Virus record (IMG/VR): IMGVR_UViG_3300028048_000213
Coordinates: 1 to 44,891 of that record
Reading direction: 5' to 3' (one strand)
From: a virus
DNA: 44,891 nucleotides
Shown: positions 1 to 42,456 of the stretch, in pieces
Layout: every line of letters starts with the position of its first letter
Numbering within the stretch: the stretch's first letter is position 1
Notes under the pieces: generated by a model
Told to the model about the DNA's origin: nothing
What the model saw: only the letters and a program-made list of their open reading frames with translations
Databases searched by the model: none
Program-made: the position numbers and the translations under genes

Positions 1-59
1 AATGATGAGGCTTATTTGGAGGCTCATATAAGCAGCCTGCTTGGTGAAGAGGTGAAACT

Positions 60-269
60 ATGAAGAATGGACTGCAAAACTTCCTTGCATATTGTTATAT
101 GTGTTATACTGGCAAGGCAAGACTAGATAAAACTCAGAATGATATTCATGACAAGCTAATCCTTGTCGGTTTTGTCTTACTGTTCATACTGGGAATCATT
201 ATTGGATGTGCAATCTGCTTCCTTATCCAGCCACCTTCATATTTCAGTACTGAACTGGCTTTTTTATAG
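60..269 (+). CDS. Small membrane protein (paralog of 36649-36858)
   Basis: Hydrophobic stretch LILVGFVLLFILGIIIGCAICFLI; GGTGA RBS upstream; ORF conserved in copy B. Confidence 0.7.
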   Translation: MKNGLQNFLAYCYMCYTGKARLDKTQNDIHDKLILVGFVLLFILGIIIGCAICFLIQPPSYFSTELAFL

Positions 270-282
270 GGGGACAATATTT

Positions 283-471
283 ATGAGAACTATCAAAAAG
301 GAAGAAAAAGTAGTAACTGATTGGCATGGTGTACTCAAAGAAATCAATAAGATTGGCGTGTTTGGTGCCAAGAAAGTACAAACTATCAGCATCAAGCAAT
401 ACTGGTCAGAACTGCATAATAAACCAGAGTACACACTTATCATCAATACTTTGGAGGAGAGAGATGACTAG
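283..471 (+). CDS. Hypothetical early protein (paralog of 36872-37060)
   Basis: ATG at 283 after a GGGGG RBS; near-identical protein in copy B starts at the equivalent ATG. Confidence 0.7.
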   Translation: MRTIKKEEKVVTDWHGVLKEINKIGVFGAKKVQTISIKQYWSELHNKPEYTLIINTLEERDD

Positions 472-658
472 TATTGGAGAGTTAGCAGACGAACTACTCG
501 AAGCCATTGCATTGGAGGATATGAAATCCTTCCAAAAAAATGGTTTCTACACAACATTCACAAAGGCAGGCGATTGCAAGGTACTCGTATTCGACCTGCC
601 AAACGAACAAACCAAACTCGAACAATTCAACATATGGAGGACCAAAAATGGCAACTAA
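464..658 (+). CDS. Hypothetical early protein (paralog of 37053-37247)
   Basis: ATG overlaps the previous ORF end; protein identical in copy B. Confidence 0.7.
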   Translation: MTSIGELADELLEAIALEDMKSFQKNGFYTTFTKAGDCKVLVFDLPNEQTKLEQFNIWRTKNGN

Positions 659-1022
659 AAAAGAAGAAACCCAAGAAATGGCACCACTCCGATACACCGA
701 TACTGTTTACAACTGCATCGGACTATGGAGACAAAAAGGCATCGATGTTAATATGATGCTGATAAAAGAACTGGAAGGAGCAAAGAAAAACCTAGACGTC
801 TACCGACAGAAAGTCGATATTGACAAAAACACCCTATTGCTTGAAACCAATTGGGACAAAGTCAATGAAGAAAGGAAAGCACAAGGATTAACAAAGATAA
901 GCAATGAGAGTATGAGGAAGGCTTACATTGACAGTCAACTCGTACAAGAAAAAAGAGAACTAAACACTTTAATCGTTGAGTATGAGACATTATTAAGAAT
1001 TTATGATGCAATCAAGGAGTAA
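648..1022 (+). CDS. Helical/coiled-coil early protein (paralog of 37237-37611)
   Basis: GGAGG RBS before ATG 648; synonymous differences between copies indicate coding constraint. Confidence 0.75.
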   Translation: MATKKEETQEMAPLRYTDTVYNCIGLWRQKGIDVNMMLIKELEGAKKNLDVYRQKVDIDKNTLLLETNWDKVNEERKAQGLTKISNESMRKAYIDSQLVQEKRELNTLIVEYETLLRIYDAIKE

Positions 1023-1030
1023 CTGATACT

Positions 1031-1705
1031 ATGGCATTCGAAACAGAAGAAACCACTAATGAAATGGTAGTTGTCGAACAAGTGAACGATCAACCTGCAA
1101 CCTTGCCAGATTATGCAATCCTTAACCCTGAAATACCAATGAGTGCTAAAGTAGGTGTTGCTACCAATGTGGCAAATACATTAGCACCATTAGTAAGGGA
1201 ACAAGGATTAACTGTTAAAGGATTAAACAAGAAAAACAAAGAAGCAGAATATGTAATGGTTGAAGGCTGGGAAGTCCTAGGAACATTCTTAGGTATTGTT
1301 CCAGTTACTACAATCATAGATGAGATTAAAAATAAGCATGGGCATATTGTAGGTTACAAGGCAAGAGCAACATTATACCAAAACCCTATAATCCAAAATG
1401 ATGAGATTATGGGCGGAACTGTCATTGCAAGGGCAGAAGCTCAAGCAGATAAGACAGGTTTTCAAAAGGATATGTTTGCCATTGCAAGTATGGCTCAGAC
1501 TCGTGCTTTAGGTAAGGCTTATCGTATGGGATTATCTTGGATTATGAAGATGGCAGGATTTGAAGGCACATTTGCAGAAGATATGCCTAAATTCAAACCA
1601 GATGATTTTGATGTGATAGAAGCAGAACATGAGGCTAAAGTAGAAAGAGCAAGAAACAAACTGAAAAAAGACACTAAGATTATTGAAATGGAGGCAGAAG
1701 AATGA
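1031..1705 (+). CDS. Putative single-strand annealing protein / recombinase (Rad52/ERF-like)
   Basis: Motif ASMAQTRALGKAYR resembles the conserved helix of phage annealing proteins; homolog at 37960-38781; typical position in a replication module. Confidence 0.55.
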   Translation: MAFETEETTNEMVVVEQVNDQPATLPDYAILNPEIPMSAKVGVATNVANTLAPLVREQGLTVKGLNKKNKEAEYVMVEGWEVLGTFLGIVPVTTIIDEIKNKHGHIVGYKARATLYQNPIIQNDEIMGGTVIARAEAQADKTGFQKDMFAIASMAQTRALGKAYRMGLSWIMKMAGFEGTFAEDMPKFKPDDFDVIEAEHEAKVERARNKLKKDTKIIEMEAEE

Positions 1706-2265
1706 GCAGAGGATTAGAACAATACACTGAGAGAGTAGTAGAACAACCAAGAAAGAAGGAGAAGGAGGCTAAAACCACCTTCTTCCCAAGCCTTGAGGGC
1801 GAAATGGTGGAAGAAAACGACTTCAACGATGAATGGTACGACTACCTGAAAGTAACACTCTCCAACCTAGAAGACGGTGAAACATGGACCGGATTCCCAG
1901 TACTCTCAGATGTCCAGACAGTACAATGGGAAGACAACCCAAAACCACAACACCGCGTAACCTTAACACTAGTGGATGAAGAAATGGAAGAAAGACTCGA
2001 AATCCCGATCACATTAAAAACTGATGGAGACATCCAAAAGAACATCCACCACAAAAGCAAACTTTACGCTTTCCTTGCCAGTATCAAAGACCTTGAAGAA
2101 CCTGGCTGGAGCAAGAAACATAACCGTATAGGTAAAGCAGACCTTGACGAATACCGCAGATTCCTTGACTCCGCAAAGGTCTGCACCATCAAAGCGATCG
2201 AAGTCCCAGCAAGGAAAGACTTCCCAAGTTACATGACTTTTAAAGTGGTTAAAATTCAACTTTAA
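1702..2265 (+). CDS. Hypothetical protein, possible ssDNA-binding protein
   Basis: Beta-rich and acidic, between the annealing protein and helicase; positional counterpart of 37620-37970. Function inferred only. Confidence 0.4.
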   Translation: MSRGLEQYTERVVEQPRKKEKEAKTTFFPSLEGEMVEENDFNDEWYDYLKVTLSNLEDGETWTGFPVLSDVQTVQWEDNPKPQHRVTLTLVDEEMEERLEIPITLKTDGDIQKNIHHKSKLYAFLASIKDLEEPGWSKKHNRIGKADLDEYRRFLDSAKVCTIKAIEVPARKDFPSYMTFKVVKIQL

Positions 2266-2313
2266 CCACTAAAACCCTTTTCTTTTTTTTATAAGAATAA
2301 ATGTTAATCGGAG

Positions 2314-4170
2314 GTGAAAAAGTTGACAGAGATACCAGCACAGGAACTTCCAATATTCCAATACTTCCTATCTGTAGAGCAGAAAGGCAAAACAGATTAC
2401 CGGTACAAACTAATCAAGGATGGCGAGATAATCTACAGGAATAATAGCAAGACAAGGCCTGGGCAACTAAACACTAACAGCAGTTTAGTGAAAGAACTAA
2501 TCAAGGAATTAGAAGGCAATGTCACCATAACCGTGGATGATGTCACCCAAGTAGTTAGCAGACCCAATATTAGTAAAAAACTGATGGCTTGCTTGGAAAA
2601 CATCGAGAATGCTCTTGAACAGTACATCCTTAACAAGAACAGGAACCAGCAAGAGCAGGACTTGAAAGAACAACGGGAGAGATTGGAAAAACTGGAAACA
2701 AGGGCTGGAGACTTCTGCAACTTCATAGAAACAAAGGAAGCCGACATAACCACATTCCTTTATTATGCAGCGGAATGGTTGAGCGGAGGCGAAGCCAGAA
2801 ACACACTCGTAGGAGTAATCTGCCACCTGAGCACTTACTTCCATATCAAACCAATATGGTTCTTCAGTATGGGTAAAGCAGGCGAGGGTAAAAGCGTAAT
2901 AGAAGAATGTGCTCATGAGATAATGCCGCCCGAGGCTTTCCGTAACGGCCGTATAAGCGAATCAGCATTACATCGTAAAACCGAAACCGAAGGCATCGAT
3001 TACCTTGACGGCAAGATAATGCGAATGAAAGACATGGGAGGCAAATCAGATTATGAGAAATGGGCCGACACTTTGGATCGTTACAAGGAATTAACCACAG
3101 AGGGCATAGTTGAAGTTGAGAAAACAAGCGATACTGCTAACCCTGATACTGGCCGCAGGGAAGTTGACTTCTTCCAAGTCCGCGGATATTGTAGTGCCTG
3201 CATAACCAGTGTGGATAGTGAGGGATTAGATGACCAGATACTGTCACGTGGGATAGATGTGACCCCTGAAGCTACAAACGAGCAAGTGCAAAAATTCTTT
3301 AAATATAATCAAGGATTGATTAAAGAAGAAAGGGCTCGCATCATTAATGATGAGATTGGTATGTTTCATGATTATGTGAATTATGTTGAAGCCAGGAGCA
3401 GGGAAGTTGAAATCATCAACCCTTATGACCCTTGCTTGTATGATTGGTTTGAAGAAGCCGAGTATTACAAAAGGGGATTAAGCACTTTCCCGGCACTCGT
3501 GAAAACAGTCACTTTACTCAATTATGATTACCGCCAACGCATAGTACGGGACGGGAAAACCTACCTTATAAGCACCCGAGCGGATAACCAGTTAATCGCT
3601 GACTTATTCAATCCAGGGCATGGAGTGAGCAAGTCTTCCATAAAAGTTTTCAATCATATGACTAACTGGTTCGAACCATATAGGCCTAGCGAAGAAGATT
3701 ATGCAAGCGAGTTTGAACGATACGAAAGAGGAGAGATACCTAACATTAAACAATGCAAGGAAATCTTCAATGTCAGTATCGTGAAGTCCAAAGTCAATAA
3801 AAACAGCAACCTTAAGGGACTCCCGGTAGGGGAAATCATAGGCAGCCTTACCAATCACGGATTCATAGAACCTATTGGAAAGATGCCAAGAGGCAATAAG
3901 AATGTGTATGCTCTTGTCCAAACGGAGCCTATAAAGAGCAACCCGATACTTTTTGAAAGTGCCGTTATTGAGGAGTATGTGGGGGAGCTCTCCCTCATGT
4001 ACGGAGTGCCGTATACCCCCCTCCTGGAAATGGTCAATCATGAAAACACCGAAAACGATGGAGAGCCTTGCAATACCCGATTGGAGCTTCCTCCGTGGAG
4101 TTCGGAAGTGCCGCACAAGTGCCTTAAAGGTGCCAGGAGGTACCACGTAGGTACCGCAAAAACCGGTTAA
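2314..4170 (+). CDS. AAA+ P-loop ATPase, putative replicative helicase (MCM-like divergent); start likely TTG 2323
   Basis: Walker A GKAGEGKS, acidic Walker B region MKDMGG, arginine-finger-like LSRG; GGAGGTGA RBS precedes TTG 2323. Confidence 0.65.
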   Translation: MKKLTEIPAQELPIFQYFLSVEQKGKTDYRYKLIKDGEIIYRNNSKTRPGQLNTNSSLVKELIKELEGNVTITVDDVTQVVSRPNISKKLMACLENIENALEQYILNKNRNQQEQDLKEQRERLEKLETRAGDFCNFIETKEADITTFLYYAAEWLSGGEARNTLVGVICHLSTYFHIKPIWFFSMGKAGEGKSVIEECAHEIMPPEAFRNGRISESALHRKTETEGIDYLDGKIMRMKDMGGKSDYEKWADTLDRYKELTTEGIVEVEKTSDTANPDTGRREVDFFQVRGYCSACITSVDSEGLDDQILSRGIDVTPEATNEQVQKFFKYNQGLIKEERARIINDEIGMFHDYVNYVEARSREVEIINPYDPCLYDWFEEAEYYKRGLSTFPALVKTVTLLNYDYRQRIVRDGKTYLISTRADNQLIADLFNPGHGVSKSSIKVFNHMTNWFEPYRPSEEDYASEFERYERGEIPNIKQCKEIFNVSIVKSKVNKNSNLKGLPVGEIIGSLTNHGFIEPIGKMPRGNKNVYALVQTEPIKSNPILFESAVIEEYVGELSLMYGVPYTPLLEMVNHENTENDGEPCNTRLELPPWSSEVPHKCLKGARRYHVGTAKTG

Positions 4171-4228
4171 AGTACCAAGAAGTACCGCAAAAAATGACAA
4201 AAGTGCCAAGAGGTACCGCAAAAAATGA
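4130..4228 (+). repeat. Iteron-like direct repeats GT(A/G)CCAAGA(A/G)GTACCGCAAAAAATGA; candidate origin A
   Basis: Near-identical 26-mers at 4172-4197 and 4203-4228; partial copies at 4130-4144 and 4149-4162. Confidence 0.75.
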
Positions 4229-4779
4229 TACACAAAATACCATGCATAAAACAATACATCTACGAAACAAATGAAGGAAACAGAAATCAAAACCTATTCA
4301 AAGCACTCAACCATCTAAGAAGGTTCAACAAACACGAACCCACCGACTTGATGGAAGAAGAAGCTGAAAAACTAAACCAATACTTCAAAGAACCATTACC
4401 AACCAATGAAGTCAAAAACATACTCAAACACGTAACCAACCATAACTATAGATCCAACTGCAAATCTTTTGAACCTTATTGTCAAAGATGCAGGTATGGT
4501 GATATGAAGGAGCGTTACAATGAGATTAACCCAAGATACCATTGGCACATAAAAGAGGATAATACATTGTATGGGTTCCCTGGTTTGCCTGATGGAACCT
4601 ATTATCCATGGGATTTTGAGAACACTCAAGATTTGGATTATACGGCTAAAAGGCTGGTGATGGAGTTGAGAGAAGCGAAGGGGATAAGTCCCTTGATAGA
4701 CCAGGAGATAATTGCGAATGGGATACCAGTAGGAGACGAAGCCCTAAACGAATACTTGGAATACTTAAAAGGAGAGTAA
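4225..4779 (+). CDS. Primase C-terminal (PriCT-1-like) domain protein with Cys cluster
   Basis: EGNRNQNLF...LNQYFKEPLPTNEV matches the PriCT-1 pattern; followed by CxxxxxYCxxC. Confidence 0.6.
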   Translation: MIHKIPCIKQYIYETNEGNRNQNLFKALNHLRRFNKHEPTDLMEEEAEKLNQYFKEPLPTNEVKNILKHVTNHNYRSNCKSFEPYCQRCRYGDMKERYNEINPRYHWHIKEDNTLYGFPGLPDGTYYPWDFENTQDLDYTAKRLVMELREAKGISPLIDQEIIANGIPVGDEALNEYLEYLKGE

Positions 4780-4784
4780 TCAGC

Positions 4785-4928
4785 ATGAACGAAGAACAAT
4801 GTGAAAGATTAGTGAAAGCATTTGAAAAAATAGCAGAATGGTTCGAACTTAACCCATTATCTGATGTTGCAGGTGCTATTGAGGAGATAAGCAACTCTAT
4901 TGATGAGATGAATGACAAGGAGGAGTAA
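4785..4928 (+). CDS. Small acidic hypothetical protein (47 aa)
   Basis: ORF MNEEQCERLVKAF...DKEE with a GGAG RBS; fills the gap between genes; not in the ORF track. Confidence 0.55.
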   Translation: MNEEQCERLVKAFEKIAEWFELNPLSDVAGAIEEISNSIDEMNDKEE

Positions 4929-4972
4929 CGGATGATACATAGTGAAACTGTAAAGCACATTGGAGATAAGAA

Positions 4973-5686
4973 ATGATGGAGATACTGATTGATGCACGGG
5001 AGCAGGGGGAGAAATACTCCCTCGGAACCCGCAAAGACAGAGCCCAAAAACATTACAATGAACTAGGCTACCCCGCAATTATAGCACAACTAGACTACGG
5101 GGACTACCTATTCAATAATGAAACCATCTTCGAGTACAAGACAATCGCAGACCTGATGAGCAGCATAAGGGACAAATCAGTATTCGAAGAAGTGGCAAAC
5201 CAAACCAAACACTACCCTTACAGTTTCCTAATAATCGTAGGAGACATAAACCATTATATTAAGTATATGTTCGACATTCCAAAGATTTACAATCACTGGG
5301 ACGGGGATTATGCTGCATGGAGAGCCAACTGCTACAAACGATATTATGGTGGACTCAGGAGATTAAGATGCTACTCCAATATCATACATTCAATGAGCGA
5401 AACACAAGCTTTTGATGAGATGCTGTTGCAGGCGATCAAGTGCAGCCATCCAAAATATTATGGTGGAACTAAACGACCTGTTAAGGGTACGGATATTATT
5501 ATCCATATGTTGTGTGGGTCTGGTAATGTGTCCCTTAAAAAGGCAGAGAGGATTAAGGAAACCTTAAGATTAGGGAGTCCGAGTGATTTGCTTGAGGCTA
5601 CCATTAAGGATTTTGAACAAGTGAAAGGAATAGGGCATAAGACTGCAACTAATCTATATGAATGGCTTCATAATGTGGAGGTTTGA
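4973..5686 (+). CDS. ERCC4/XPF-family structure-specific nuclease with HhH motif (probable resolvase)
   Basis: IDAREQ...GDY...EYKTIADLMSSI nuclease motifs; C-terminal VKGIGHKTA helix-hairpin-helix. Confidence 0.85.
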   Translation: MMEILIDAREQGEKYSLGTRKDRAQKHYNELGYPAIIAQLDYGDYLFNNETIFEYKTIADLMSSIRDKSVFEEVANQTKHYPYSFLIIVGDINHYIKYMFDIPKIYNHWDGDYAAWRANCYKRYYGGLRRLRCYSNIIHSMSETQAFDEMLLQAIKCSHPKYYGGTKRPVKGTDIIIHMLCGSGNVSLKKAERIKETLRLGSPSDLLEATIKDFEQVKGIGHKTATNLYEWLHNVEV

Positions 5687-5928
5687 TAATATTTTGTGAG
5701 AGTAGTGAGGATTTTAACAGCAGAGAATATAAGGGGTACAAGCCCTACACAATGCCAGAACGGGGCTATGATTGGAAGGATTATGTAAGATTGAATGATG
5801 CCGAGGATAAAGTAGTGAGTTGTCATATGTGCGACATCCGAAAAACCGGTTGCATAAGCAAAGCTACACCAAGGTATTATTGTAAACGGGATAAGCGATC
5901 AATACAAACAAGTTTAGGAGATTTTTAA
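5683..5928 (+). CDS. Small Cys-rich protein with C-terminal PIP-box-like motif (paralog of 42210-42455)
   Basis: TTG start after GGAGG; CHMC...C...C cluster; ends QTSLGDF. Confidence 0.7.
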   Translation: MIIFCESSEDFNSREYKGYKPYTMPERGYDWKDYVRLNDAEDKVVSCHMCDIRKTGCISKATPRYYCKRDKRSIQTSLGDF

Positions 5929-5929
5929 C

Positions 5930-6655
5930 ATGAATAATTTTGAAAAGATTTTTGAAAAGCTAGCACGTACCCATGACCCTATGAATCTCTTTAGTGAGTT
6001 TTTAGATTATTGCATTGACATAAATCTTCTCACTCTTAAAAGCCAAGGATTAGATTTCAAAGGAAGAGAAAAACAGTACATGGAAATGTTCAAGGAATGG
6101 ATACTAATCACTAATGAAACCCTAGAGAAAGAGGATTCCATAGGTTGGTATGATTACCTTGGAGAGTTTTACGAAGCGGTAATCCAATCCAAATTCAAGG
6201 CTGGAAGTATGGGTCAGTTTTTCACACCATCTAACGTTTGCGAAGCTACGGCTGAGATGACTATGATGGGAAAGCCAAGTGATGGCATGATTAATGATTG
6301 TTGTTGTGGAAGTGGAAGATTATTACTTGCAGGGCATAATCATGATCCAAATGCCATAGTAATAGGTCAGGATTTGGATAGTGTTAGTGTTAAGATGGCA
6401 GCTTTGAATTTTTATATTCATGGTGTACGTGGTAGTGTTTTGCATATGAACAGTATTACCAATGAGTTTTTCGGTGGCTATAAGGTTAACCAGTATCTTG
6501 GGTATGGGTTGCCTTTACCTCATATAGAACTGTTGCATTCATATGAAGATGCTTTCCATTTCTTTGGTGAAGGTTTCAATAAGAGTATTGAAGAGGAACA
6601 GATAGTTGAATTGCATCCTTCAGGTAAGGAAACAGTACAAACAACATTAATCTAA
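5930..6655 (+). CDS. Short HsdM-like (N6-adenine methyltransferase fold) protein lacking the NPPY/F catalytic motif
   Basis: GQFFTP, DCCCGSGRLL (SAM motif I), GQDLD; no [ND]PP[YF]; ends QTTLI. Confidence 0.75.
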   Translation: MNNFEKIFEKLARTHDPMNLFSEFLDYCIDINLLTLKSQGLDFKGREKQYMEMFKEWILITNETLEKEDSIGWYDYLGEFYEAVIQSKFKAGSMGQFFTPSNVCEATAEMTMMGKPSDGMINDCCCGSGRLLLAGHNHDPNAIVIGQDLDSVSVKMAALNFYIHGVRGSVLHMNSITNEFFGGYKVNQYLGYGLPLPHIELLHSYEDAFHFFGEGFNKSIEEEQIVELHPSGKETVQTTLI

Positions 6656-6671
6656 GGTGGGCGGAGTTTGT

Positions 6672-7097
6672 ATGTATGATACATTATTAGATTACAATAA
6701 CAACATGGGATATGTTCCACCATTAGATGTTCCCGAATCCAAAGCAGAACTCATTTATCGTGTTACAGAAAAAATGAGCAAATACTGTAATCAGAAACAA
6801 TTAAGCGAATTAAACAAGGTTCTGATTCATGAATTAGAAAAAGTGGACATCATAACCCAAGAAAAACCTATTTTAGAAGATGCGAAAAGAGAGAATGAAA
6901 GATTATTGAATGATTTTATTGATGCTAAAAAACTGGAAGGCCGAAGCATAAACACTTTAGTCTATTACAAATCCACACTTGAGAAATTTTTAGAAACCCT
7001 TAACAAACCAGTTACCGATGTAAGAGCTCAGGAATTAAGACCATACCTGCTTAATTATGGAGAAACTGTTAGTAAAGTCACATTAGATAATGTCCGA
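6672..7097 (+). repeat. Direct repeat copy A3 (homologous to 44466-44891)
   Basis: 426 bp with 4 substitutions by manual alignment; the last 127 bp (6971-7097 / 44765-44891) are identical. Confidence 0.95.
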
Positions 7098-7727
7098 AGG
7101 ATTTTCAGCAGCTTCTTTGCTTGGCTACTTGAAGAGGAATATATCTTCCGAAACCCTATGAATAAGATCCATAGAGTAAAACAGCCAAAGACAATTAAGA
7201 AACCATTTACCGAGTATGAGATTGAACAGTTAAGGTTAGCTTGCACTAACCTGCGTGATAGAGCAGTGCTTGAACTATTATTAAGTACTGGAATAAGAAT
7301 AACCGAACTAATCCAATTGAAAAAGGATGATGTCGATTTCCATGACAGGAGCATAATCGTATGGGGTAAAGGTGCAAAACAAAGAGAAGTATATTTCGGA
7401 GAACAAGCCGAACTTCATCTCCAAATGTATCTTGATTCAAGAACTGATAATGACCCTCATTTATTCCTAGCCCTCATAGGAGGGAAACCTCTTCAAAGTA
7501 ACAGCAGTCTTATATCAATGTTCAAGGGATTAAGTGAACGTTCAGGAGTTCCTAAAGTTCATGCTCACAGATTCCGCAGAACCATGGCCACATGGGCAGT
7601 CAATCATGGAATGCCTATAGAACAAATCAGCCAATTATTAGGGCATGCCAGTTTGGAAACTACTCAGATTTATGCAATAGTGGACCAGTCCCAACTCAAA
7701 TATGCTCATAAGAAATATATAAGATGA
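6672..7727 (+). CDS. XerD-like tyrosine recombinase
   Basis: RDRAVLELLLSTGIRITEL (R), GKGAK (K), HAHRFRRT (HxxR), LLGH and TQIY (H, Y); N-terminal SAM-like domain. Confidence 0.93.
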   Translation: MYDTLLDYNNNMGYVPPLDVPESKAELIYRVTEKMSKYCNQKQLSELNKVLIHELEKVDIITQEKPILEDAKRENERLLNDFIDAKKLEGRSINTLVYYKSTLEKFLETLNKPVTDVRAQELRPYLLNYGETVSKVTLDNVRRIFSSFFAWLLEEEYIFRNPMNKIHRVKQPKTIKKPFTEYEIEQLRLACTNLRDRAVLELLLSTGIRITELIQLKKDDVDFHDRSIIVWGKGAKQREVYFGEQAELHLQMYLDSRTDNDPHLFLALIGGKPLQSNSSLISMFKGLSERSGVPKVHAHRFRRTMATWAVNHGMPIEQISQLLGHASLETTQIYAIVDQSQLKYAHKKYIR

Positions 7728-28249: not shown

Positions 28250-31200
28250 ATGGGATTAACTATTGTTGTAATGACTGGTGATGAGGAATTCCTACGATTC
28301 CTCGACCCAGAATTATGTGATTTAACCGAGACACACGAACAAGGTGGCTTACGCTCACTTGACTTCACCTACCAGTTCCAAGATTTGCACGAAGACAAGC
28401 AACTATTCCGAATCGGCAACAAGGTCTGGATTAGTGGCGACAATAATTTAACAGATTGCTTGTATGTCATCAATACACCAGTAGAAACCGATGTTTACCA
28501 AGAGAATAGTTTCCATACTGAACTGGAAGAAGTCCTTGTAGAATTGAATTATGCTCCATTGTTTACACAGAACGAACTAACAAGTAGTAATGGTTTTGAT
28601 GTGAGTGTAACAAATGGACAACAAAGCGTAAACATCGACTATAATGCCTTGCATTACTGGTTTGGAGACTGGTTTAATATTGGAGTAGTGCAATATGCAA
28701 TGAACAAAGCCTACAACCATATCAGCCTGAACGGCACAATTAACTTGATGACATTGTTAAGGTATATTGAAGAGGAAACAGGTAATGTGTTCGTTACAAG
28801 GTATGAAAAAGACCAACTAAACAATACAATCCATAGGTATTTGGATTTCTTGAATCCGATAGATGTAAGCAAGAATTGGCAGTTGAATATAGAGTATGAT
28901 TTCGTAACCGAAAACAACACAACCCCCGAAATCTACGATACTGATGGAAACCCAACAACCGACACCTACGAAGACGTCGAAGAAGAAGACGACATAGTAA
29001 ACTTTGATGACGGAACCGTATTAGCGAATATTGATCCAACCAATACAGAGTTAAGAATCACTAACTCTAATGGCGAACTCCTTAACAGTGATGGCAAAGT
29101 CTACAAAGAAGGAGACACACCACTCAGTTGGAATGCCAAGACCGTCGGATTAGATGGAACAGACCCTAATGTCTGCATCTGCCTTTCAATGAATCACGGC
29201 ACACTCGGTATGGAAATCAAGGGTAAAAGCTTCGCCGTCGCAGCCACTGATGTGTGTGGTGTTCAACCTAAAAGCTTTATCAGTATAGCGGATGACCCTG
29301 ACACTATTACGGATACTACCATTCCTGATGATTGCTACTTTACAATCTATGATACTGAAAACAAGTTAATATTGTATATGACTTGCATTAACAGGGAAAT
29401 AGGTCATGTGCACGAAGAAGTCCTAGACTTTGGTTTTAACTTGGAGAATGTCCAGTTTGAGACAGATGAGACCGAAACATTCACCAGCATAAGCCCAATC
29501 CTAAGCCTTGATGAGAATAATGGTCTTACAAGGAATGATATGAACAATATCATAAATGCTTGGAAGAACCTAAGCGTCACTAAGGGCGAAACAATACCAA
29601 TGATAATCGAGAGGGTGCAGATACAAGCAAATGACACTAGTATGGCACAGCAACAAATGGGAGCAAGCAGTAAGAGTAATTTCTGGCAAAGACCATATCA
29701 CCCAAATGATAATGTGGACACTCAAACCGCATCTAATAGCAAATGGGAGTATTGGAGAGCCACTGCTTATTGGAAAGCACCATATAATAAACTGGCGGGT
29801 GATTTGCACGTAAGCACCGAGAATATTCCTAATATGGAGTATACCACAGTCTATGGCAATCCTGATGTCCGTGACGATTTCTTATTGAATCGTCCGAAGA
29901 TGGGAACCGTTGAAACCAGTGACGAAGTAGCCCTAGCAATCTACAATGATGTTGCAATGAAACTCAAAGAAAAATCCACTAGGGAATTCAACATTACCGT
30001 AGATGTCGCTAACCTACGGAAAGAGGGAAGCTTCAACGATTATGAATTACACGATAAGGTGTATGTGAAGCTTCCGGATTATAGTGAATTGGTCACGGCT
30101 AGGGTGGTTAAGACACATAAGGAGGCTCATGATGTAGCCAAAAACACCATCGAACTCAGCAATTATAGCTTGAATAATATTAAAGCAGTGACCAAGGAAA
30201 CCAGTATCAATGCAAGTAATGTGTCATTTAAATATCCGAATGAAAAATTATATAGTGTTCGGTTGGAGAATTTGGATTATGATGAGACCGACACCTATAG
30301 CACACAATACCTACCGAATAAACTGGTTACTTTTGCCTTGTACACGGTAAAGGATAATGGCAGCAGTAAGACCTTGACCAAGCACACCTACAATCGTTTG
30401 ACCGATGCAAATGGTTACGCAAGGCTGAACCTGCAATTTAATCCAGGAGACTACGAACTCGTTATAAGTTTCGGTGGTGATGAGGAGTACGAAGAAGCCA
30501 CAAATACTGTCCAGGTTAATGTGTCTGGTACTGTGGAGACTCCTCCGAAGCCAGTTGATACAAAGAAGAAAACACCTAAGGATTTGAAGCAGAAAACCAC
30601 AAAGAAAACAAGTAAGTCTACAAAGGGTGTAAAACGATACTATACTAAGTATGGTGTATCGCCTGATGGTAAATACTTGATGGCCATTGGTCTACCTAGT
30701 GCATATGGTGAGTTACCCAAATATGGTGCCAAATTTTATAAAACCGTGTTTAAAAGGAAATGTCCATTCTGTGGCAGTAAGGAATTGTATTGGGGTATAT
30801 TCTGGGCTGGCAACGAGCACAGCAACTGGGGAAAATTCCCAGCCACAGGCAACAGAGAAGGAGGCTCCGCAGAAGGACACATCTTTTGCAAGAAGTGTGA
30901 TGCAGACTTCAGCACAATCACTGGAGCAAACCACGGAAGCAACCCAAAGAAGCTTAAAATGTACAAAAAGCCTGTCAAATGTACAAAGACAGATGCCTAC
31001 ACCCTTAAAAAAGGGAAAATGTACTACGACACAATAACAAAAACCGTCAAAGCCAAGAATGTCGAATCCAGTAAAAACCGGACATCTAGTTACACGATCA
31101 ATAAGAACCTTGTGCAATTAGCCAAGAATATTGTTGGCAATAGTACGGGTTTGGCGGCGGCGAAGAAGATTGCTGCTTGGTGTGGTAAAAAGAGTAATCT

Positions 31201-31540
31201 TAGGTATGATTATTATGATAATTTCAGGCGTTCACCAACATATGTTATGAAAGTGAAAGGAGCGAATTGTTGTGACAGTACAAGGTTCATGTTTACTTTG
31301 ATGGATGCCGCGGGTTGCACGGAGACATTACGGTTGGAGTATGTGCATACAAAGAATGGCCGTAATGGTCATGTACTCGGCAAGATTACCACTATTAGCA
31401 CGGGTAAGTGGCGGTATGTTGACCCTGTGTTGAAGTATCGTAAGCCTTGGGGCAACCACTTAAATAACCCAAAATATGGTACTGTTCCTGGCAGGACTCA
31501 TAGTTATCAGGGTCCGAATTATCCTAATGGTTTCTTCTAA
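28250..31540 (+). CDS. Tail-tip (Tal-like) protein with Ig-like, Zn-binding and C-terminal transglutaminase-fold pseudomurein peptidase domains
   Basis: Position after Dit; DANGYARL...PGDYELVISFGGD Ig-like repeat; CPFC...CKKC; catalytic triad NCCD / GHV / VDP. Confidence 0.75.
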   Translation: MGLTIVVMTGDEEFLRFLDPELCDLTETHEQGGLRSLDFTYQFQDLHEDKQLFRIGNKVWISGDNNLTDCLYVINTPVETDVYQENSFHTELEEVLVELNYAPLFTQNELTSSNGFDVSVTNGQQSVNIDYNALHYWFGDWFNIGVVQYAMNKAYNHISLNGTINLMTLLRYIEEETGNVFVTRYEKDQLNNTIHRYLDFLNPIDVSKNWQLNIEYDFVTENNTTPEIYDTDGNPTTDTYEDVEEEDDIVNFDDGTVLANIDPTNTELRITNSNGELLNSDGKVYKEGDTPLSWNAKTVGLDGTDPNVCICLSMNHGTLGMEIKGKSFAVAATDVCGVQPKSFISIADDPDTITDTTIPDDCYFTIYDTENKLILYMTCINREIGHVHEEVLDFGFNLENVQFETDETETFTSISPILSLDENNGLTRNDMNNIINAWKNLSVTKGETIPMIIERVQIQANDTSMAQQQMGASSKSNFWQRPYHPNDNVDTQTASNSKWEYWRATAYWKAPYNKLAGDLHVSTENIPNMEYTTVYGNPDVRDDFLLNRPKMGTVETSDEVALAIYNDVAMKLKEKSTREFNITVDVANLRKEGSFNDYELHDKVYVKLPDYSELVTARVVKTHKEAHDVAKNTIELSNYSLNNIKAVTKETSINASNVSFKYPNEKLYSVRLENLDYDETDTYSTQYLPNKLVTFALYTVKDNGSSKTLTKHTYNRLTDANGYARLNLQFNPGDYELVISFGGDEEYEEATNTVQVNVSGTVETPPKPVDTKKKTPKDLKQKTTKKTSKSTKGVKRYYTKYGVSPDGKYLMAIGLPSAYGELPKYGAKFYKTVFKRKCPFCGSKELYWGIFWAGNEHSNWGKFPATGNREGGSAEGHIFCKKCDADFSTITGANHGSNPKKLKMYKKPVKCTKTDAYTLKKGKMYYDTITKTVKAKNVESSKNRTSSYTINKNLVQLAKNIVGNSTGLAAAKKIAAWCGKKSNLRYDYYDNFRRSPTYVMKVKGANCCDSTRFMFTLMDAAGCTETLRLEYVHTKNGRNGHVLGKITTISTGKWRYVDPVLKYRKPWGNHLNNPKYGTVPGRTHSYQGPNYPNGFF

Positions 31541-32628: not shown

Positions 32629-33675
32629 ATGTCAAGAATAACACAAAAAAACATAATCAATGAAGCGGTTGAAGTTAAACATTTTATTGAAACTAATAAG
32701 AAACTGCCAAAGTATTGTACTATTGAGGGTAATCAGTATAGTGTTTACACAACTGCCTACTTGATAAGCAGAACAATCGCAAACTTGAAAACAGAAAACA
32801 TCAAAGTAGAAACAATCAACAAATCCAATCAAGGATTCAGTACCAAACTAGATGAGAATTGCAGTAAAACAACCTATTTGGATATGGTGTCAAGGTTCAA
32901 TGAGTACTGCAACAAAAATGGTAGAGTCCCTGCATATGTAATAACCATAAGAAACAAGGCAGACTTCACAACCTACCTATATGCTTGTTGTAAAATACTA
33001 AATTACTACAAGCAAAACAATACTTTACCTAACTCTTGCTTGTTTACATCATCATACATTGATGTAAATAAAAAGGAGACTACAAAAACAAAAAACAATC
33101 AAAGCACATCTACATCAACCAATGCAAACATAGAAGTTTATACAAGCAGTCCACATTATCTGAATACCGGTTGCAACAACCTAGGACAATGCACCAGTTA
33201 TTATTGTGGTGTTCATTCAGTCCATCAAGTATTGCGGAAGTTTGGCATAACCAAATACAACGAGAATAAACTTGCAGGCTGGGCAGGAACCACAACCAGC
33301 GGTACCGACCATCAAGGCATAAATACAGCCATAGCCAAAGCCAGTAACGGCAACCTAAAAACAAGGTGGATTAATTTCAGTAGCCTCGGCGAAGATACAA
33401 GCGCTAGGTTTAAAGCCCTTGGCAAACTAATAAGCCAAAAGGATACTGACTGCATCATACACAACCTATACCGACTCAAATATGGTCACTACGAGACAAT
33501 CCATAAAATAGACCATAATAATAAAACAGTTTATGTCTTAAACAGTCTCGGCAACAAATGCGGAACCACAAGCTACTGTGGCTACATCGAAAAAAGAAGT
33601 TATACTGAATTTGCTAAGTATATTGCAAACACACCAGCCAACCAACCAAGCATATGCCTAATCACAAAAAAATAA
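32629..33675 (+). CDS. Endolysin: pseudomurein-binding repeats plus C39-like peptidase (PeiR-like)
   Basis: FIETNKKLPKY and YCNKNGRVPAYV PMBR-like repeats; QCTSYYCG, GHY and LNS papain-like catalytic motifs; next to a holin. Confidence 0.8.
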   Translation: MSRITQKNIINEAVEVKHFIETNKKLPKYCTIEGNQYSVYTTAYLISRTIANLKTENIKVETINKSNQGFSTKLDENCSKTTYLDMVSRFNEYCNKNGRVPAYVITIRNKADFTTYLYACCKILNYYKQNNTLPNSCLFTSSYIDVNKKETTKTKNNQSTSTSTNANIEVYTSSPHYLNTGCNNLGQCTSYYCGVHSVHQVLRKFGITKYNENKLAGWAGTTTSGTDHQGINTAIAKASNGNLKTRWINFSSLGEDTSARFKALGKLISQKDTDCIIHNLYRLKYGHYETIHKIDHNNKTVYVLNSLGNKCGTTSYCGYIEKRSYTEFAKYIANTPANQPSICLITKK

Positions 33676-34461: not shown

Positions 34462-35577
34462 ATGTACAAGGAAGACAAGGAACTACTAACAAGAATAGCA
34501 AAAGCAAAAAACCTCACCCAGAACACGATCAACAATTACCATTCGGCAATCAACAAATACACAACCTACTGTGGCAAAAGCATGGCCCAATTACTGGAAG
34601 AGGCAGAGCAAGAAGAAGAAGACGGCATAAGATGGAAACGGCGAAAAATCCGAAAACGCCTCATAGGGTACAGAGCAAGCCTAATAGACGAGTACGAGTA
34701 CGAAGGAACAATCAGAGTATACTTGCAGAAAATACTCGCAATCTACCGACACTACGAGATAGAATTACAACCACTCCCACAGGTAAGCACACGGAACAAA
34801 ACAAAACCCAATGTCAATTACACAGACCTACCAGACAAGGAAATAATCCGAAGAGCCGTAAACCTAACCGACCCCAAAATGAAAGCACTAATCCTCTTCA
34901 TGACCAGCAGCGGAACAGGCAGAACCGAAACACTAAACCTAACAATACAAGACTTCATCCAAGCGACAAGCGAATACCACAACAAGGAAGAGATTCATGA
35001 AGTATTGAAGGAGTTAGATCCAAACACGGATATAATTCCAACTTGGAGGATACACCGACAGAAAACCAACAAGGATTATTATACTTTCAGCAGCCCCGAA
35101 TCCACAAGAGCAATCATATACTATCTTGAAAATAAAGAGGATTGTTTAACCAGTACAAGCAGATTATTCGATTATGATTACTCCTACCTTGGGAAGAAAT
35201 TCAGTCAGATTAATAGGAAGCTCGACCTGGGTAGTGTTGGGAAGTATCATCGGTTCCGTAGTCATATGCTCAGGAAGTATCATGCGAGTCAATTATCACA
35301 AGGCGAGAATGCTTTGACTCTTGATGAAATTGATGCTTTGCAGGGGCGGAGTAAGGAGAAGACGAGGCAATCTTATTTCCTGAATAATCCTGATGATTTG
35401 AAAAGGAAGTATGCTCGGAATATAAACCAACTCTTGATATTGGAGGAGGTTAAGCAAGTTGAAAATGAAGAGTATTATGAATTAAAAAAGAAGTATGAGA
35501 AATTAGAAGCCAATATTAAAGAGGCTGCACGTGAGGAGGTGAGACGGATATTATTGGATTTGGGTTATGAATTATAA
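34462..35577 (+). CDS. int: Tyrosine integrase
   Basis: SSGTGRTE (R), RQKT (K), HMLRKYH (HxxR), LQGR...SYF (Y). Confidence 0.88.
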   Translation: MYKEDKELLTRIAKAKNLTQNTINNYHSAINKYTTYCGKSMAQLLEEAEQEEEDGIRWKRRKIRKRLIGYRASLIDEYEYEGTIRVYLQKILAIYRHYEIELQPLPQVSTRNKTKPNVNYTDLPDKEIIRRAVNLTDPKMKALILFMTSSGTGRTETLNLTIQDFIQATSEYHNKEEIHEVLKELDPNTDIIPTWRIHRQKTNKDYYTFSSPESTRAIIYYLENKEDCLTSTSRLFDYDYSYLGKKFSQINRKLDLGSVGKYHRFRSHMLRKYHASQLSQGENALTLDEIDALQGRSKEKTRQSYFLNNPDDLKRKYARNINQLLILEEVKQVENEEYYELKKKYEKLEANIKEAAREEVRRILLDLGYEL

Positions 35578-36486: not shown

Positions 36487-36652
36487 GGATTACCTTGAAC
36501 TTGGAGCAATCCATACTGTCGAGGCTCCTGATGAAATCCCATGGTACGATCCAAAAGATGAAGAGGATTACATTGTGGATTGTTACTTGAATGATGAGGC
36601 TTATTTGGAGGCTCATATAAGCAGCCTGCTTGGTGAAGAGGTGAAACTATGA
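36473..36652 (+). CDS. Acidic hypothetical protein; its 3' end is also present at 1-63
   Basis: ATG 36473; C-terminus identical to window positions 1-63. Confidence 0.6.
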   Translation: MMDFEDYLELGAIHTVEAPDEIPWYDPKDEEDYIVDCYLNDEAYLEAHISSLLGEEVKL

Positions 36653-36858
36653 TTAATGGATTGCAGAACTTCCTTGCATATTGTTATATGTGTTATACTG
36701 GCAAGGCAAGACTAGACCGTGTACAAACTGATATCCACAGGACACTTGTCCTGGTTGGTTTTGTAACACTCCTTGTTCTTGCATTTCTGGGACTTGTAGC
36801 ACTTTGCTTCCTTATCAAGCCACCGGAATATTATAGCACACCTTTGGCTTTTTTATAG
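36649..36858 (+). CDS. Small membrane protein (paralog of 60-269)
   Basis: Same length; hydrophobic helix conserved. Confidence 0.7.
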   Translation: MINGLQNFLAYCYMCYTGKARLDRVQTDIHRTLVLVGFVTLLVLAFLGLVALCFLIKPPEYYSTPLAFL

Positions 36859-36871
36859 GAGGATTTAGTTT

Positions 36872-37060
36872 ATGAGAGTTATTAAGAAAGAAGAAAAAAT
36901 CATTACAGACTGGCACGGAGTCCTGAAAGAAATAAACAAAATAGGGGTCTTCGGAGCCAAGAAAGTACAAACCATCAGCATCAAGCAATACTGGTCAGAA
37001 CTGCATAATAAACCAGAGTATACCTTAATCATCAATACTTTGGAGGAGCATGATGACTAG
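36872..37060 (+). CDS. Hypothetical early protein (paralog of 283-471)
   Basis: Near-identical protein. Confidence 0.7.
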   Translation: MRVIKKEEKIITDWHGVLKEINKIGVFGAKKVQTISIKQYWSELHNKPEYTLIINTLEEHDD

Positions 37061-37247
37061 TATTGGAGAGTTAGCAGACGAATTACTCGAAGCCATTGCA
37101 TTGGAGGATATGAAATCCTTCCAAAAAAATGGTTTCTACACAACATTCACAAAGGCAGGCGATTGCAAAGTACTCGTATTCGACCTGCCCAATGAACAAA
37201 CCAAACTCGAACAATTCAACATATGGAGGACCAAGAATGGCAACTAA
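37053..37247 (+). CDS. Hypothetical early protein (paralog of 464-658)
   Basis: Identical protein. Confidence 0.7.
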   Translation: MTSIGELADELLEAIALEDMKSFQKNGFYTTFTKAGDCKVLVFDLPNEQTKLEQFNIWRTKNGN

Positions 37248-37611
37248 ACAAGAAGAAACCCAAGAAATGAAACCATTACGATACACCGACACCGTTTACA
37301 ACTGCATCGGACTATGGAGACAAAAAGGCATCGACGTCAACATGATGCTAATCAAAGAACTAGAAGGAGCAAAGAAAAACCTGGACGTCTACCGACAGAA
37401 AGTCGACATCGACAAAAACACCCTATTGCTTGAAACCAATTGGGACAAGGTGAACGAAGAAAGGAAAGCACAAGGATTAACAAAAATATCAAATGAGAGT
37501 ATGAGAAAGGCTTACATTGACAGTCAGCTCGTACAAGAAAAAAGAGAACTAAACACACTCATAGTAGAGTATGAAACACTATTAAGAATTTATGATGCAA
37601 TCAAGGAGTAA
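37237..37611 (+). CDS. Helical early protein (paralog of 648-1022)
   Basis: Near-identical protein. Confidence 0.75.
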   Translation: MATKQEETQEMKPLRYTDTVYNCIGLWRQKGIDVNMMLIKELEGAKKNLDVYRQKVDIDKNTLLLETNWDKVNEERKAQGLTKISNESMRKAYIDSQLVQEKRELNTLIVEYETLLRIYDAIKE

Positions 37612-37619
37612 CTGATACT

Positions 37620-37970
37620 ATGGCATTCGAAACAATCACACCAGGAATAGACGAAACAAGCAGATACTGGGAACCACTAACAGTTGGAGACCAAATAGAA
37701 GGAAACGTAATCGATTTTGTAGAAGACAACTACGGCAATACTCGTATCCTACTTGAATTGGAGAGCGGATTCGAAAAAGAACTACCATCTCACAGGGACC
37801 TGCAAAGATACAACAGGAAAGTAGACATCGGCGACTACATCAGAGTAACCCTTGCGAAGATAATACCATCTAACAATGAAAACTACGCCGACAAAAGAGT
37901 ATACAAAGTCGAAAAAGACCCAAGCAGAAGAGTAGAATACGAAGAAGAGGAGGCAGAATATGACTACTAA
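37620..37970 (+). CDS. Putative OB-fold ssDNA-binding protein
   Basis: YWEPLTVGDQIEGNV...VDIGDYIRVT...YKV OB-like pattern; acidic C-terminal tail EEEEAEYDY. Confidence 0.55.
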   Translation: MAFETITPGIDETSRYWEPLTVGDQIEGNVIDFVEDNYGNTRILLELESGFEKELPSHRDLQRYNRKVDIGDYIRVTLAKIIPSNNENYADKRVYKVEKDPSRRVEYEEEEAEYDY

Positions 37971-38781
37971 AAACGAAATCATAGAGGCGGAGGCAAAAAC
38001 CTCCTCCCTCGACCTAATCAAAGACGAAAACAAACTCAAAACCGAAAACCATAACGCCCTAGCAGTAGTACACGAAGTATTACACAACAAGGAGAAACCC
38101 GTTATAGTAAACGGGAAACGCCATCTTGAATTCGAAGACTGGATCGCACTAGGCAATGCATTCGGAATAGCCGTAAGAACCGGTGAAGCGGAACCAGTCG
38201 AGATATTCGAGGCCAAGGGATTCAAAGCAAGAGCTGAAGTAGTGAGAGTATCCGATGGCATAATCATTGGTGGAGCCGAAGCTTACTGCTTGAACAATGA
38301 AAGAAACTGGAGAAACAAGGATTACTTCCAAATGGCTAGCATGGCGCAAACTCGTGCTGGTTCGAAGGCCCTTTCCAACCAGTTAAGAGGATTCGTAAGC
38401 CTTGACAAAAACTTGAATGGCACACCATCCGAAGAAATGGTAGGGATAAACAATGAGAAAAAAGGTCAAGTTAGGCGTAGGAAGAAGGCTCCGGCACAAC
38501 CGAAAAAAGAAAAAGAAGCTGAAGAAGCCGAAGTCATCGAAGCCGAAATAGTTGAAGAAAAACCAAAATCCGATAACCCAGCACTCGTACTCAAAGGAAC
38601 CGACAATGTGGTACTCGGCGAATGGTTTAGGAAGATTATCCAAAAACTCGAAAGACGCGGAGACGAACTCAACAAGAAAAACTTCACCCGCATCAGTAAG
38701 ATATGGGCATTCGACAACCAATACCCTGACTTCAATGAGGACATTTGTAAAAACTTACTTGAACACGTGGAAGAAGCATAA
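37960..38781 (+). CDS. Putative single-strand annealing protein (homolog of 1031-1705)
   Basis: Shared W..LG...GI, KARA and ASMAQTRA motifs. Confidence 0.55.
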   Translation: MTTKNEIIEAEAKTSSLDLIKDENKLKTENHNALAVVHEVLHNKEKPVIVNGKRHLEFEDWIALGNAFGIAVRTGEAEPVEIFEAKGFKARAEVVRVSDGIIIGGAEAYCLNNERNWRNKDYFQMASMAQTRAGSKALSNQLRGFVSLDKNLNGTPSEEMVGINNEKKGQVRRRKKAPAQPKKEKEAEEAEVIEAEIVEEKPKSDNPALVLKGTDNVVLGEWFRKIIQKLERRGDELNKKNFTRISKIWAFDNQYPDFNEDICKNLLEHVEEA

Positions 38782-38844
38782 AAACCCCTATCTTCCACCA
38801 CTTTTTTTTATCACCCAAACAAATACGGGAGGTGAAAAACCACA

Positions 38845-40881: not shown

Positions 40882-40890
40882 AAACACAAG

Positions 40891-41106
40891 ATTACATTTG
40901 AAATTACATTTTGTCTTTGTAATTCCAAAACCTTGGAGAACTCAGTATTTTGTAGTTTTGAGTATTCATAGGATTTATTATAAAATTACAAAATTTTTTC
41001 AATGGGTATTGGTATATTACAGAGCGACCTTTTTTATTGTTTGTAATTTTGTAATAATGTAATTCTAAACAATAAAATAAGCAATGTAATTTTGTAATTT
41101 TGTAAT
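40891..41106. repeat. AT-rich cluster of ATTACA/TGTAAT repeats; candidate origin B
   Basis: ATTACA at 40891, 40903, 40985, 41016; TGTAAT at 40918, 41042, 41050, 41058, 41085, 41093, 41101. Confidence 0.75.
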
Positions 41107-41134
41107 TTCAAAAAAAAATATAAGGAGACAACTT

Positions 41135-42455: not shown

Positions 42456-42456
42456 A

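Follow-up and report, generated by a model that had tools for sequence, protein, structure and literature searches.

Candidate PCNA-docking C-terminal tails on methyltransferase-fold proteins and a small Cys-rich protein of a probable Methanobrevibacter virus

Tail-bearing proteins in two gene clusters

The IMG/VR record IMGVR_UViG_3300028048_000213, analysed here over its whole length of 44,891 bp (the window), is a complete virus record whose positions 1-7727 form a divergent repeat of 36590-44891, with 78-99% DNA identity. Both copies of the repeated gene cluster (A on the left, B on the right) encode methyltransferase-fold proteins and a small Cys-rich protein that end in a Q-x-x-L peptide. 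These tails, and their presumed partner PCNA (proliferating cell nuclear antigen, the sliding clamp of the host), are the subject of this report. The carriers in the window are as follows.

5683-5928, plus strand: 81-residue Cys-rich protein, copy A; tail QTSLGDF coded at 5905-5925
5930-6655, plus strand: short HsdM-like S-adenosylmethionine (SAM)-binding protein, copy A, 241 residues; tail KETVQTTLI coded at 6626-6652
42210-42455, plus strand: 81-residue Cys-rich protein, copy B; tail QTSLGDY coded at 42432-42452
42666-43619, plus strand: beta-class N6/N4 DNA methyltransferase, 317 residues; tail QRRLI coded at 43602-43616
43699-44451, plus strand: short HsdM-like protein, copy B, 250 residues; tail QTTLI coded at 44434-44448

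The five C-termini, read from the open reading frames (ORFs) of the window, are those listed in an earlier, sequence-only reading of this DNA: QTSLGDF, QTSLGDY, KETVQTTLI, DKTKQTTLI and AKAQRRLI. The claim that all methyltransferase-fold proteins carry such a tail also stood, for three such ORFs alone were found among the 35 window ORFs scanned with Pfam, which include only part of the structural ORFs. All five tails have Gln at position 1 and Leu, Ile or Met at position 4. We propose to distinguish two forms, a PIP (PCNA-interacting protein) box with a single terminal aromatic residue in the 81-residue protein and a presumably minimal form, Q-x-[KRT]-L-hydrophobic-COOH, in the methyltransferase-fold proteins.

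The pattern Q..[LIM][hydrophobic] fits 11 of the 3352 pentapeptides that precede stops in the six frames of the window. Neither tail form was found elsewhere among the plus-strand ORFs of the window; the minus-strand ORF 41065-41391 fits the loose long pattern, as a chance match. In a related, methylase-free virus of M. gottschalkii, vir075, none of 32 early proteins carries such a tail. The tails are correctly observed and far from chance. Chance origin was considered and discarded, since the tails are found in three independent families of one cluster and in hundreds of their homologs, whereas the background is 11/3352.

The motif is kept in both divergent alleles, as had been noticed from the sequence: the two HsdM-like copies share 43% identity and both end in QTTLI, and the 81-residue copies share 84%. 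One might imagine that the identical QTTLI reflects conservation of DNA and not selection on the peptide, for example of a ribosome-binding site or of a recombination junction at the edge of the integrase block. DNA identity between the HsdM-like copies indeed climbs just ahead of the integrase start, which lies 1-2 nt downstream. However, the Q and T codons differ synonymously (CAA ACA in copy A, CAG ACC in copy B), what comes after the same tail at the loci L001, L002 and L004 is either an unrelated gene or non-coding DNA, and the tails of the beta-class methylase and of the 81-residue protein lie far from any integrase. The synonymous codons and the varied downstream contexts rule this explanation out, and we give it practically no credence.

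The short HsdM-like protein

The HsdM-like protein of copy A matches PF02384 (5.7e-16) over profile positions 4-117 of 311 only, and it belongs to phrog_5696, a family without assigned function. Residues 1-213 form its folded core, 214-232 a disordered linker and 233-241 the tail KETVQTTLI. Its AlphaFold2 (AF2) model has a predicted confidence (pLDDT) of 85, exceeding 90 over most of residues 1-213 and falling below 50 over 214-241. The fold matches HsdM subunits (PDB 3lkd, 2okc, 3ufb and 7vs4) with Z of 7.5-8 over about 175 residues (VIA-align 7.5-7.9), in structural alignments that reach only the N-terminal half of the HsdM chains. The SAM-binding motifs X (GQFFTP) and I (DxxCGSG) are kept in 131-142 of 142 relatives, and motifs II and III in nearly all of them as well.

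The tail is kept as a peptide across the family, behind a hypervariable linker. Among 120 close homologs (46-98% identity), 114 have Q..[LIMV] within the last ten residues and 108 end exactly in Q-[TS]-[KTR]-L-[MIFWL], the exceptions being mostly fragments. In the alignment, a core of some 213 residues is conserved; a linker of 10 to about 60 residues without conserved sequence separates it from the motif. When columns are anchored at the C-terminus, entropy amounts to 3.0-3.7 bits at positions -25 to -10 and drops to 0.95, 1.27, 1.03 and 1.19 bits at positions -7, -6, -4 and -3, which were not used in choosing the sequences. Two homologs that are 89-93% identical to the window protein (P0081 and P0082) end in QTTLGDF/Y, that is, in a PIP form at the position of the short one, and further homologs end in QVSLDSFLEG, QTTLGEF, QVSLEAFM and QSNLDKFVEV.

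The beta-class methylase

The enzyme at 42666-43619 is an ordinary full-length PF01555 methylase, as its sequence indicates: the match (2e-29) covers profile positions 1-221 of 221, DPPY is present in the context VLTDPPYG, and the protein belongs to phrog_67 (DNA methyltransferase). It had been called a beta-class methyltransferase not homologous to the other carriers, a description borne out by these matches; its tail reads AKAQRRLI. Of 120 homologs, 70 have Q-x-[KR]-L and then one or two hydrophobic residues right after the last helix, and nearly all of these 70 are at least 60% identical. Under about 57% identity, the homologs, a Furfurilactobacillus enzyme among them, stop at the domain helix and have no tail. 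Some homologs end in PIP-type boxes instead (QSTLDF, QSSLGDFL, QSKLDTF...). This distribution suggests that the beta-class methylase gained its tail independently, within a branch associated with Methanobrevibacter.

The motifs had been said to follow linker-like stretches. This applies to the HsdM-like proteins, where the motif ends a long, disordered and thus flexible segment, but not to the beta-class methylase, whose tail abuts the last helix directly.

The 81-residue protein and the ERCC4 nuclease

The 81-residue protein has four invariant cysteines (C47, C50, C57 and C67). Among its 77 homologs, Q75 and L78 are invariant in all full-length ones, and F or Y is the last residue of every aligned full-length homolog except P0069 (QTSLGGFGL). 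The residues around Q and L vary (KVERQITLGDF, KKTIQMTLGDF, KVDRQSSLFEF), and IMG/VR homologs at 45% identity still end in RQSSLFEF or RQSSLFEW, giving the consensus Q-x-[ST]-L-x-[DE]-[FYW]-COOH. The protein had no match in Pfam or PHROG and no tblastn match in the phage collection, and the ESM Atlas gave sub-threshold matches only.

Its gene adjoins that of a nuclease:

4973-5686, plus strand: XPF/Hef-like nuclease with ERCC4 and helix-hairpin-helix domains, copy A; PF02732, PF14520, NCBIfam Hef and Xpf matches
41500-42213, plus strand: XPF/Hef-like nuclease with ERCC4 and helix-hairpin-helix domains, copy B; 44% identity to copy A

The nuclease of copy A lacks a PIP, and its gene ends in a stop codon that overlaps the beginning of the 81-residue gene. 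Crenarchaeal XPF depends on PCNA through its own C-terminal PIP. We can imagine the 81-residue protein either as a blocker that fills the PIP pocket, in the manner proposed for the archaeal inhibitor TIP, and so competes with host clients, or as an adaptor that would recruit the PIP-less nuclease to PCNA. Both roles are compatible with its lack of an enzymatic domain and with the survival of a PIP-like tail in the 45%-identity homologs. In both copies in the window and at the loci L115-L117, L148 and L149, the 81-residue gene either overlaps the ERCC4 gene or lies directly beside it; at L151, however, a distant homolog lies away from any ERCC4 gene, and the AF2 model of the protein (pLDDT 48) offers no usable fold. 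We put forward the pair of roles tentatively, somewhat short of an even chance. Within it, the adaptor role is a sub-hypothesis of low weight, suggested by synteny in close relatives and failing in L151.

Bacterial-phage cousins and the switch of motif

A profile search with the HsdM-like family across 1.84 billion cluster representatives gave 229 matches at E<1e-30, and tails were read in the best 150. In about 78 of these 150 the tail is QLSLF, QLTLF, QLNLF, QLSFF, QMSLF or something very similar, which mostly closes the chain behind a low-complexity, charged linker. Some 17 matches, which are the nearest, show only the Methanobrevibacter form and 6 only the form QxxLxx[FWY]. Faecalibacterium phages Roos and FP_Taranis end in GQLTFF and an uncultured gut phage in RLQLDLFD, and no tail is present on the homologs from Flavobacterium phage laban6-1, Dulem virus 37 and Vibrio phage K389.

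C-terminal QLxLF is the consensus for binding to the bacterial beta clamp. Its position 2 is hydrophobic and its position 5 is Phe, where the window tails have T or R and I, respectively. The shift is systematic across the family: of 71 distant tails, 54 have L/M/I at position 2, in contrast to T/S in 106 of 108 close ones, and 61 have F at position 5, in contrast to M/I/F/W in the close ones. Because the bacterial cousins carry the beta-clamp motif, clamp tethering would be a trait of the family, with the motif following the domain of the host. We see in these cousins the strongest support for the clamp reading. According to the sequence-only reading, PCNA docking would be refuted if the same terminal motif were equally common in homologs from bacterial phages. 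Q-x-x-L-F is often present there, but as QL[ST]LF of the beta-clamp type, so that this criterion was ill chosen and the result favours a clamp.

The same cousins raise the question whether the short tail might be a relic of the beta-clamp motif that lost its function after an HsdM-like gene had been transferred from bacterial phages, or else a generic signal for stability or degradation. Q-x-x-L-hydrophobic-COOH is spaced like QLxLF, and most of the HsdM-like family comes from bacterial phages and ends in QLxLF. We nevertheless find this very improbable. A relic would hardly shift systematically at positions 2 and 5 in the archaeal branch, nor stay invariant across 100 distinct sequences while the linker is randomised. 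Moreover, the same tail is found on unrelated proteins (the beta-class methylase, a full-length N6 methylase, a GIY-YIG nuclease, SplB-like proteins, one RNase HII), the bacterial relatives of which do not have it.

The host and its proteins with similar tails

The lysis region of the window indicates the kind of host:

32629-33675, plus strand: pseudomurein endoisopeptidase-type endolysin; PF09373 repeat 9.7e-12, Peptidase_C39-like match

With such an endolysin, the host should therefore be a pseudomurein-walled methanogen. The DNA of the terminase gene TerL shares 67% identity with its counterpart in M. gottschalkii virus vir075, and the portal region matches Methanobacterium virus Drs3. Among 185,579 species genomes (GTDB), full-length relatives of the HsdM-like protein occur in five Methanobrevibacter genomes only; one of them is the isolate M. 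cuticularis DSM 11139, where an integrase again follows the HsdM-like gene. The host is a pseudomurein-walled archaeon of the Methanobacteriales, most likely Methanobrevibacter. Neither a PCNA gene nor a polymerase gene was found in the record, the replication gene found being primase-helicase-like (DUF5906, PriCT). Lacking a polymerase and a clamp of its own, the virus therefore presumably depends on the host replisome.

Methanobrevibacter FEN1 ends in SQGSLDAWF, the DP2 subunit of PolD in KQSSLDVFF and NucS in KKVTLDAF, all at the extreme C-terminus; DNA ligase has no C-terminal motif. A pattern scan of five Methanobrevibacter genomes gave 41 matches, and 41 for the reversed pattern as well, so that the informative subset consists of those that end long ORFs; 30 of the 41 places were read. 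Eight long ORFs end in Q[ST][TK]L[ILF]: four encode short HsdM-like proteins, one a GIY-YIG nuclease, two chromosomal SplB-like radical-SAM proteins and one a protein of 130 residues. One of the 11 unread places falls on an RNase HII gene. In other Methanobrevibacter proviruses, the tail is found on a full-length N6 methylase of 553 residues and on a protein of 184 residues without Pfam match. All carriers with a recognisable domain act, or are predicted from that domain to act, on DNA or other nucleic acid.

Several of these proteins deserve a separate description. The RNase HII just mentioned (L036, G003:C105) is the one enzyme among 31 from Methanobacteriaceae that has a tail, DVQTTLI, the same as the viral one; the idea that RNase HII generally bears the short tail in the host was accordingly dropped (1/31 only). 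The SplB-like proteins at L131:649-1518 (G003:C65) and L128:1501-2376 (G009:C1), from two species, end in KQSTLF-COOH; they are related to PA0069/Rv2578c below the curated cut-off and may be new PCNA clients. Synteny links archaeal SplB-like genes to PCNA-binding Nre proteins (PMC4929162). The GIY-YIG protein (L139:1504-2760, G003:C72) resembles group I intron endonucleases, has 419 residues and ends in NVQSTLI; its contig is rich in proviruses and also holds two short HsdM-like genes with the tail.

Some Methanobrevibacter proviruses encode a PCNA homolog. The one at L003:9661-10398, in a metagenome-assembled genome (G002), matches PF00705 (1e-19), is 53% identical to host PCNA and adjoins an HNH endonuclease and an ERCC4 nuclease. 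Further homologs are located at G003:C52:73469-73816, G024:C1:67162-67479 and G034:C3:24816-25136, and the 130-residue protein with the tail mentioned above, which ends in QSKLI, lies about 2 kb from the copy on G003:C52.

Predicted docking on PCNA

Modelling of a complex with Methanobrevibacter PCNA had been suggested along with the original proposal. We predicted the complex of this PCNA (25-row alignment) with residues 205-241 of the HsdM-like protein (34-row alignment), copy A being the only one whose tail was modelled in complex. The interface score ipSAE was 0.76, 0.77 and 0.76, against 0.00, 0.20 and 0.00 for the controls; 58 of 80 solved complexes attain the mark used for this score, as do 2 of 110 mismatched pairs. 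Agreement between the runs is 55% of contacts or better, and the pLDDT of the partner is 44 or more. Confident contacts connect tail residues 233-241 (KETVQTTLI) to PCNA residues 40, 43-47, 124, 218 and 235-242, which we take to be the canonical PIP site, formed by the hydrophobic pocket together with the interdomain connecting loop and the LAPR strand at the C-terminus. The model supports binding, with the HsdM-like tail predicted to dock in the canonical PIP pocket.

In the sequence-only reading, the tails were likened to the canonical archaeal motif QxxLxx[FY][FY]. The likeness holds for the 81-residue protein, which has PIP-like QxxLxx[FY], a single aromatic at position 7 and then the end, just as host NucS with KVTLDAF. 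The methylase tails are shorter, of the form Q-x-x-L-hydrophobic-COOH.

Proposed mechanism and its alternatives

We consider it likely that the carriers dock into the PIP pocket of host PCNA by means of their C-terminal peptides, which would act as short linear motifs. This pocket is the hydrophobic cleft beneath the interdomain connecting loop together with the C-terminal strand of PCNA. PCNA rings left on replicating viral DNA would then recruit the beta-class methylase and the HsdM-like protein to the nascent duplex, and this recruitment might speed up protective modification ahead of restriction enzymes. The purpose would most likely be co-replicative protective methylation, by analogy with eukaryotic DNMT1 on PCNA. 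The analysis itself shows terminal peptides that are conserved, specific to the host and placed in a flexible context, and that can be modelled in the PIP pocket. We infer PCNA binding, a benefit to the virus and any enzymatic activity of the HsdM-like proteins, and the same goes for the purpose, be it pre-emptive protection from restriction or hijacking of the clamp. The original suggestion of PCNA docking gains from the conservation of the tails, the interchange with PIP forms, the C-terminal boxes of host proteins, the complex model and the beta-clamp cousins; it loses by the form of the motif and by the doubtful activity of the HsdM-like proteins.

Several points weigh against the proposal. 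The aromatic pair at PIP positions 7-8 is absent, the methylase tails stopping at position 5, and QxxL-hydrophobic-COOH is not, to our knowledge, the form of any characterised PCNA ligand. The core host clients that were checked (FEN1, DP2 and NucS) carry the long form, not the short one, and 30 of 31 RNase HII enzymes of Methanobacteriaceae have no tail at all, though this enzyme is a classic PCNA client in other archaea. In part of the tail-bearing branch of the beta-class methylase the tail is missing, i.e. it was lost. The complex score may mirror mere likeness to solved complexes of PIP peptides with PCNA, the partner's own fold is uncertain, and the alignments were built by ourselves. 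As for catalysis, the HsdM-like proteins do not have motif IV, (D/N)PP(Y/F/W): the window protein reads V-N-Q-Y at this place and the family N-[PE]-x-L. Their model comprises five strands and stops at residue 213, after strand 4-5, so that the second half of the methylase fold is absent. Since both (D/N)PP(Y/F) and half of the fold are missing, DNA methylation by the HsdM-like proteins is no more than putative, and tethered methylation may be the wrong description in their case. The statement that the methyltransferases modify DNA thus fits the complete beta-class enzyme with its DPPY, but not readily the two truncated HsdM-like proteins.

The unusual form of the motif could also mean that the tails bind some hub other than PCNA, such as the viral primase-helicase, host RPA or another factor of replisome or repair. 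This would agree with the short form not being a canonical PIP, since the checked host clients use QxxLDx[FW][FL], and with the tail-less RNase HII enzymes. Four observations speak against it. The short form gives way to a PIP form at the same position in P0081 and P0082, which are nearly identical to the window protein. The beta-clamp motif on the bacterial cousins argues against a hub that is not a clamp. The tail is present on host chromosomal proteins in genomes that do not contain this virus, so a virus-encoded partner is unlikely. Finally, the complex model puts the tail into the PIP pocket, with controls at 0.00-0.20. We thus regard a different hub as an improbable explanation, and docking on PCNA as the preferred one.

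A broader claim is that the phrog_5696 family as a whole rides the clamp of its host, the beta clamp of bacteria by means of QLxLF and the PCNA of methanogens by means of Q-[ST]-[TK]-L-hydrophobic or QxxLxxF, and that Methanobrevibacter viruses grafted the minimal tail onto unrelated true methylases and nucleases as well. Co-replicative DNA modification coupled to the clamp, or some other counter-defence directed by it, would then be a widespread, so far unrecognised viral strategy. For this we see the arguments as evenly balanced. Q-x-x-L-hydrophobic-COOH would be a new minimal PCNA ligand that possibly evolved from the bacterial motif after transfer between domains.

If the tails do bind PCNA, then methanogen viruses put DNA-modifying enzymes on the replication clamp and mark new viral DNA before host restriction can act, which would be the counterpart in a prokaryotic virus of the coupling of DNMT1 to PCNA. 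The beta-clamp cousins suggest that the same trick is played across domains, and sliding clamps would join the host hubs in the arms race of restriction and anti-restriction. The candidate ligand QxxL-hydrophobic-COOH could also help to predict the PCNA interactome of Methanobrevibacter, the dominant methanogen of the gut and otherwise hard to study; it already points to the SplB-like radical-SAM proteins and the GIY-YIG nuclease.

Other genes of the window

Around the tail-bearing genes, the two clusters contain the following:

6657-7727, plus strand: tyrosine integrase, directly downstream of HsdM-like copy A; PF00589 2.6e-33
42457-42669, plus strand: 70-residue protein, copy B only, between the 81-residue gene and the beta-class methylase

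A second integrase copy, 99% identical to that at 6657-7727, starts at 44451. The 70-residue protein (42457-42669) does not have a clamp-type tail; its gene occupies the equivalent position in L115-L117, and a homolog starting with MLEVVQ is present in L148 and L149. Gene content differs between the conserved blocks of the two cluster copies, and a single set of structural genes lies between them. The two early/replication clusters may stem from related proviruses in tandem, or two strains may have been joined in a chimeric assembly. Another, divergent integrase-like ORF (34462-35577; weak PF16795 and PF00589) is situated between the lysis genes and the early region. The tail region includes a protein of 1096 residues (28250-31540) that has an Ig-like domain and, at its C-terminus, a domain resembling the transglutaminase core (PF01841, 1e-4).

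Comparison with known systems

The HsdM-like protein shares with HsdM of Type I restriction-modification systems (PF02384) the N-terminal helical domain and the SAM motifs X, I, II and III. It differs in being truncated, in lacking (D/N)PP(Y/F) and the HsdS-binding C-terminus, and in having gained a clamp-type tail.

In the literature searched, we found no published description of clamp-binding motifs on prokaryotic or viral DNA methyltransferases; the paper on MSTV1 mentions methylases solely as anti-restriction genes. Small proteins that engage PCNA are familiar from archaea and their viruses. Sulfolobus virus SIRV2 encodes PCNA-recruiting proteins. In Thermococcales, the small PCNA inhibitor TIP, whose putative PIP is N-terminal, has been proposed to shut off PCNA clients (PMC4929162). 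The putative engagement of PCNA by the 81-residue protein would resemble both cases, but there is no sequence similarity, the 81-residue protein combines a four-Cys site with a C-terminal PIP, and the known proteins do not come from methanogen viruses.

The archaeal PIP consensus is QXXhXXaa, with FEN1, PolD DP2, NucS/EndoMS, RNase HII and NreA among the clients (PMC4929162). The viral tails share with the C-terminal boxes of these clients the Gln, the aliphatic residue three positions on and the location at the extreme C-terminus. IQTSLGDF of the 81-residue protein resembles KVTLDAF of host NucS and QSSLDVFF of DP2, whereas the methylase tails end one residue past the aliphatic one; viral methyltransferase-fold carriers are not among the known clients.

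A functional parallel is the eukaryotic methyltransferase DNMT1, whose motif begins with QTTI and so comes close to QTTLI. DNMT1 is coupled to PCNA by a PIP-type motif (PMC9690074). In both cases a DNA methyltransferase is tethered to PCNA and methylation follows the fork, which for the virus is our proposal. DNMT1, however, is a cellular enzyme of the C5 cytosine class with an internal, N-terminal motif, and there is no homology.

With the beta-clamp motif QL[SD]LF, the window tails have in common an extreme C-terminal pentapeptide whose positions 1, 4 and 5 are Q, L and a hydrophobic residue. They differ by polar or basic residues at 2-3 and by I at 5, and the archaeal host has no beta clamp. 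A switch of this kind has a precedent in IS1634 transposases, which carry QLxLF in bacteria vs a PIP box in methanogens, with measured binding (PMC4549789). Thus PIP clients, the coupling of DNMT1 to PCNA, the beta-clamp motif and the IS1634 switch are known, while the client classes, the minimal form of the motif and the family-wide switch across domains would be new. In the manner of the IS1634 transposases, the archaeal HsdM-like members carry a PCNA-type motif in place of the beta-clamp one.

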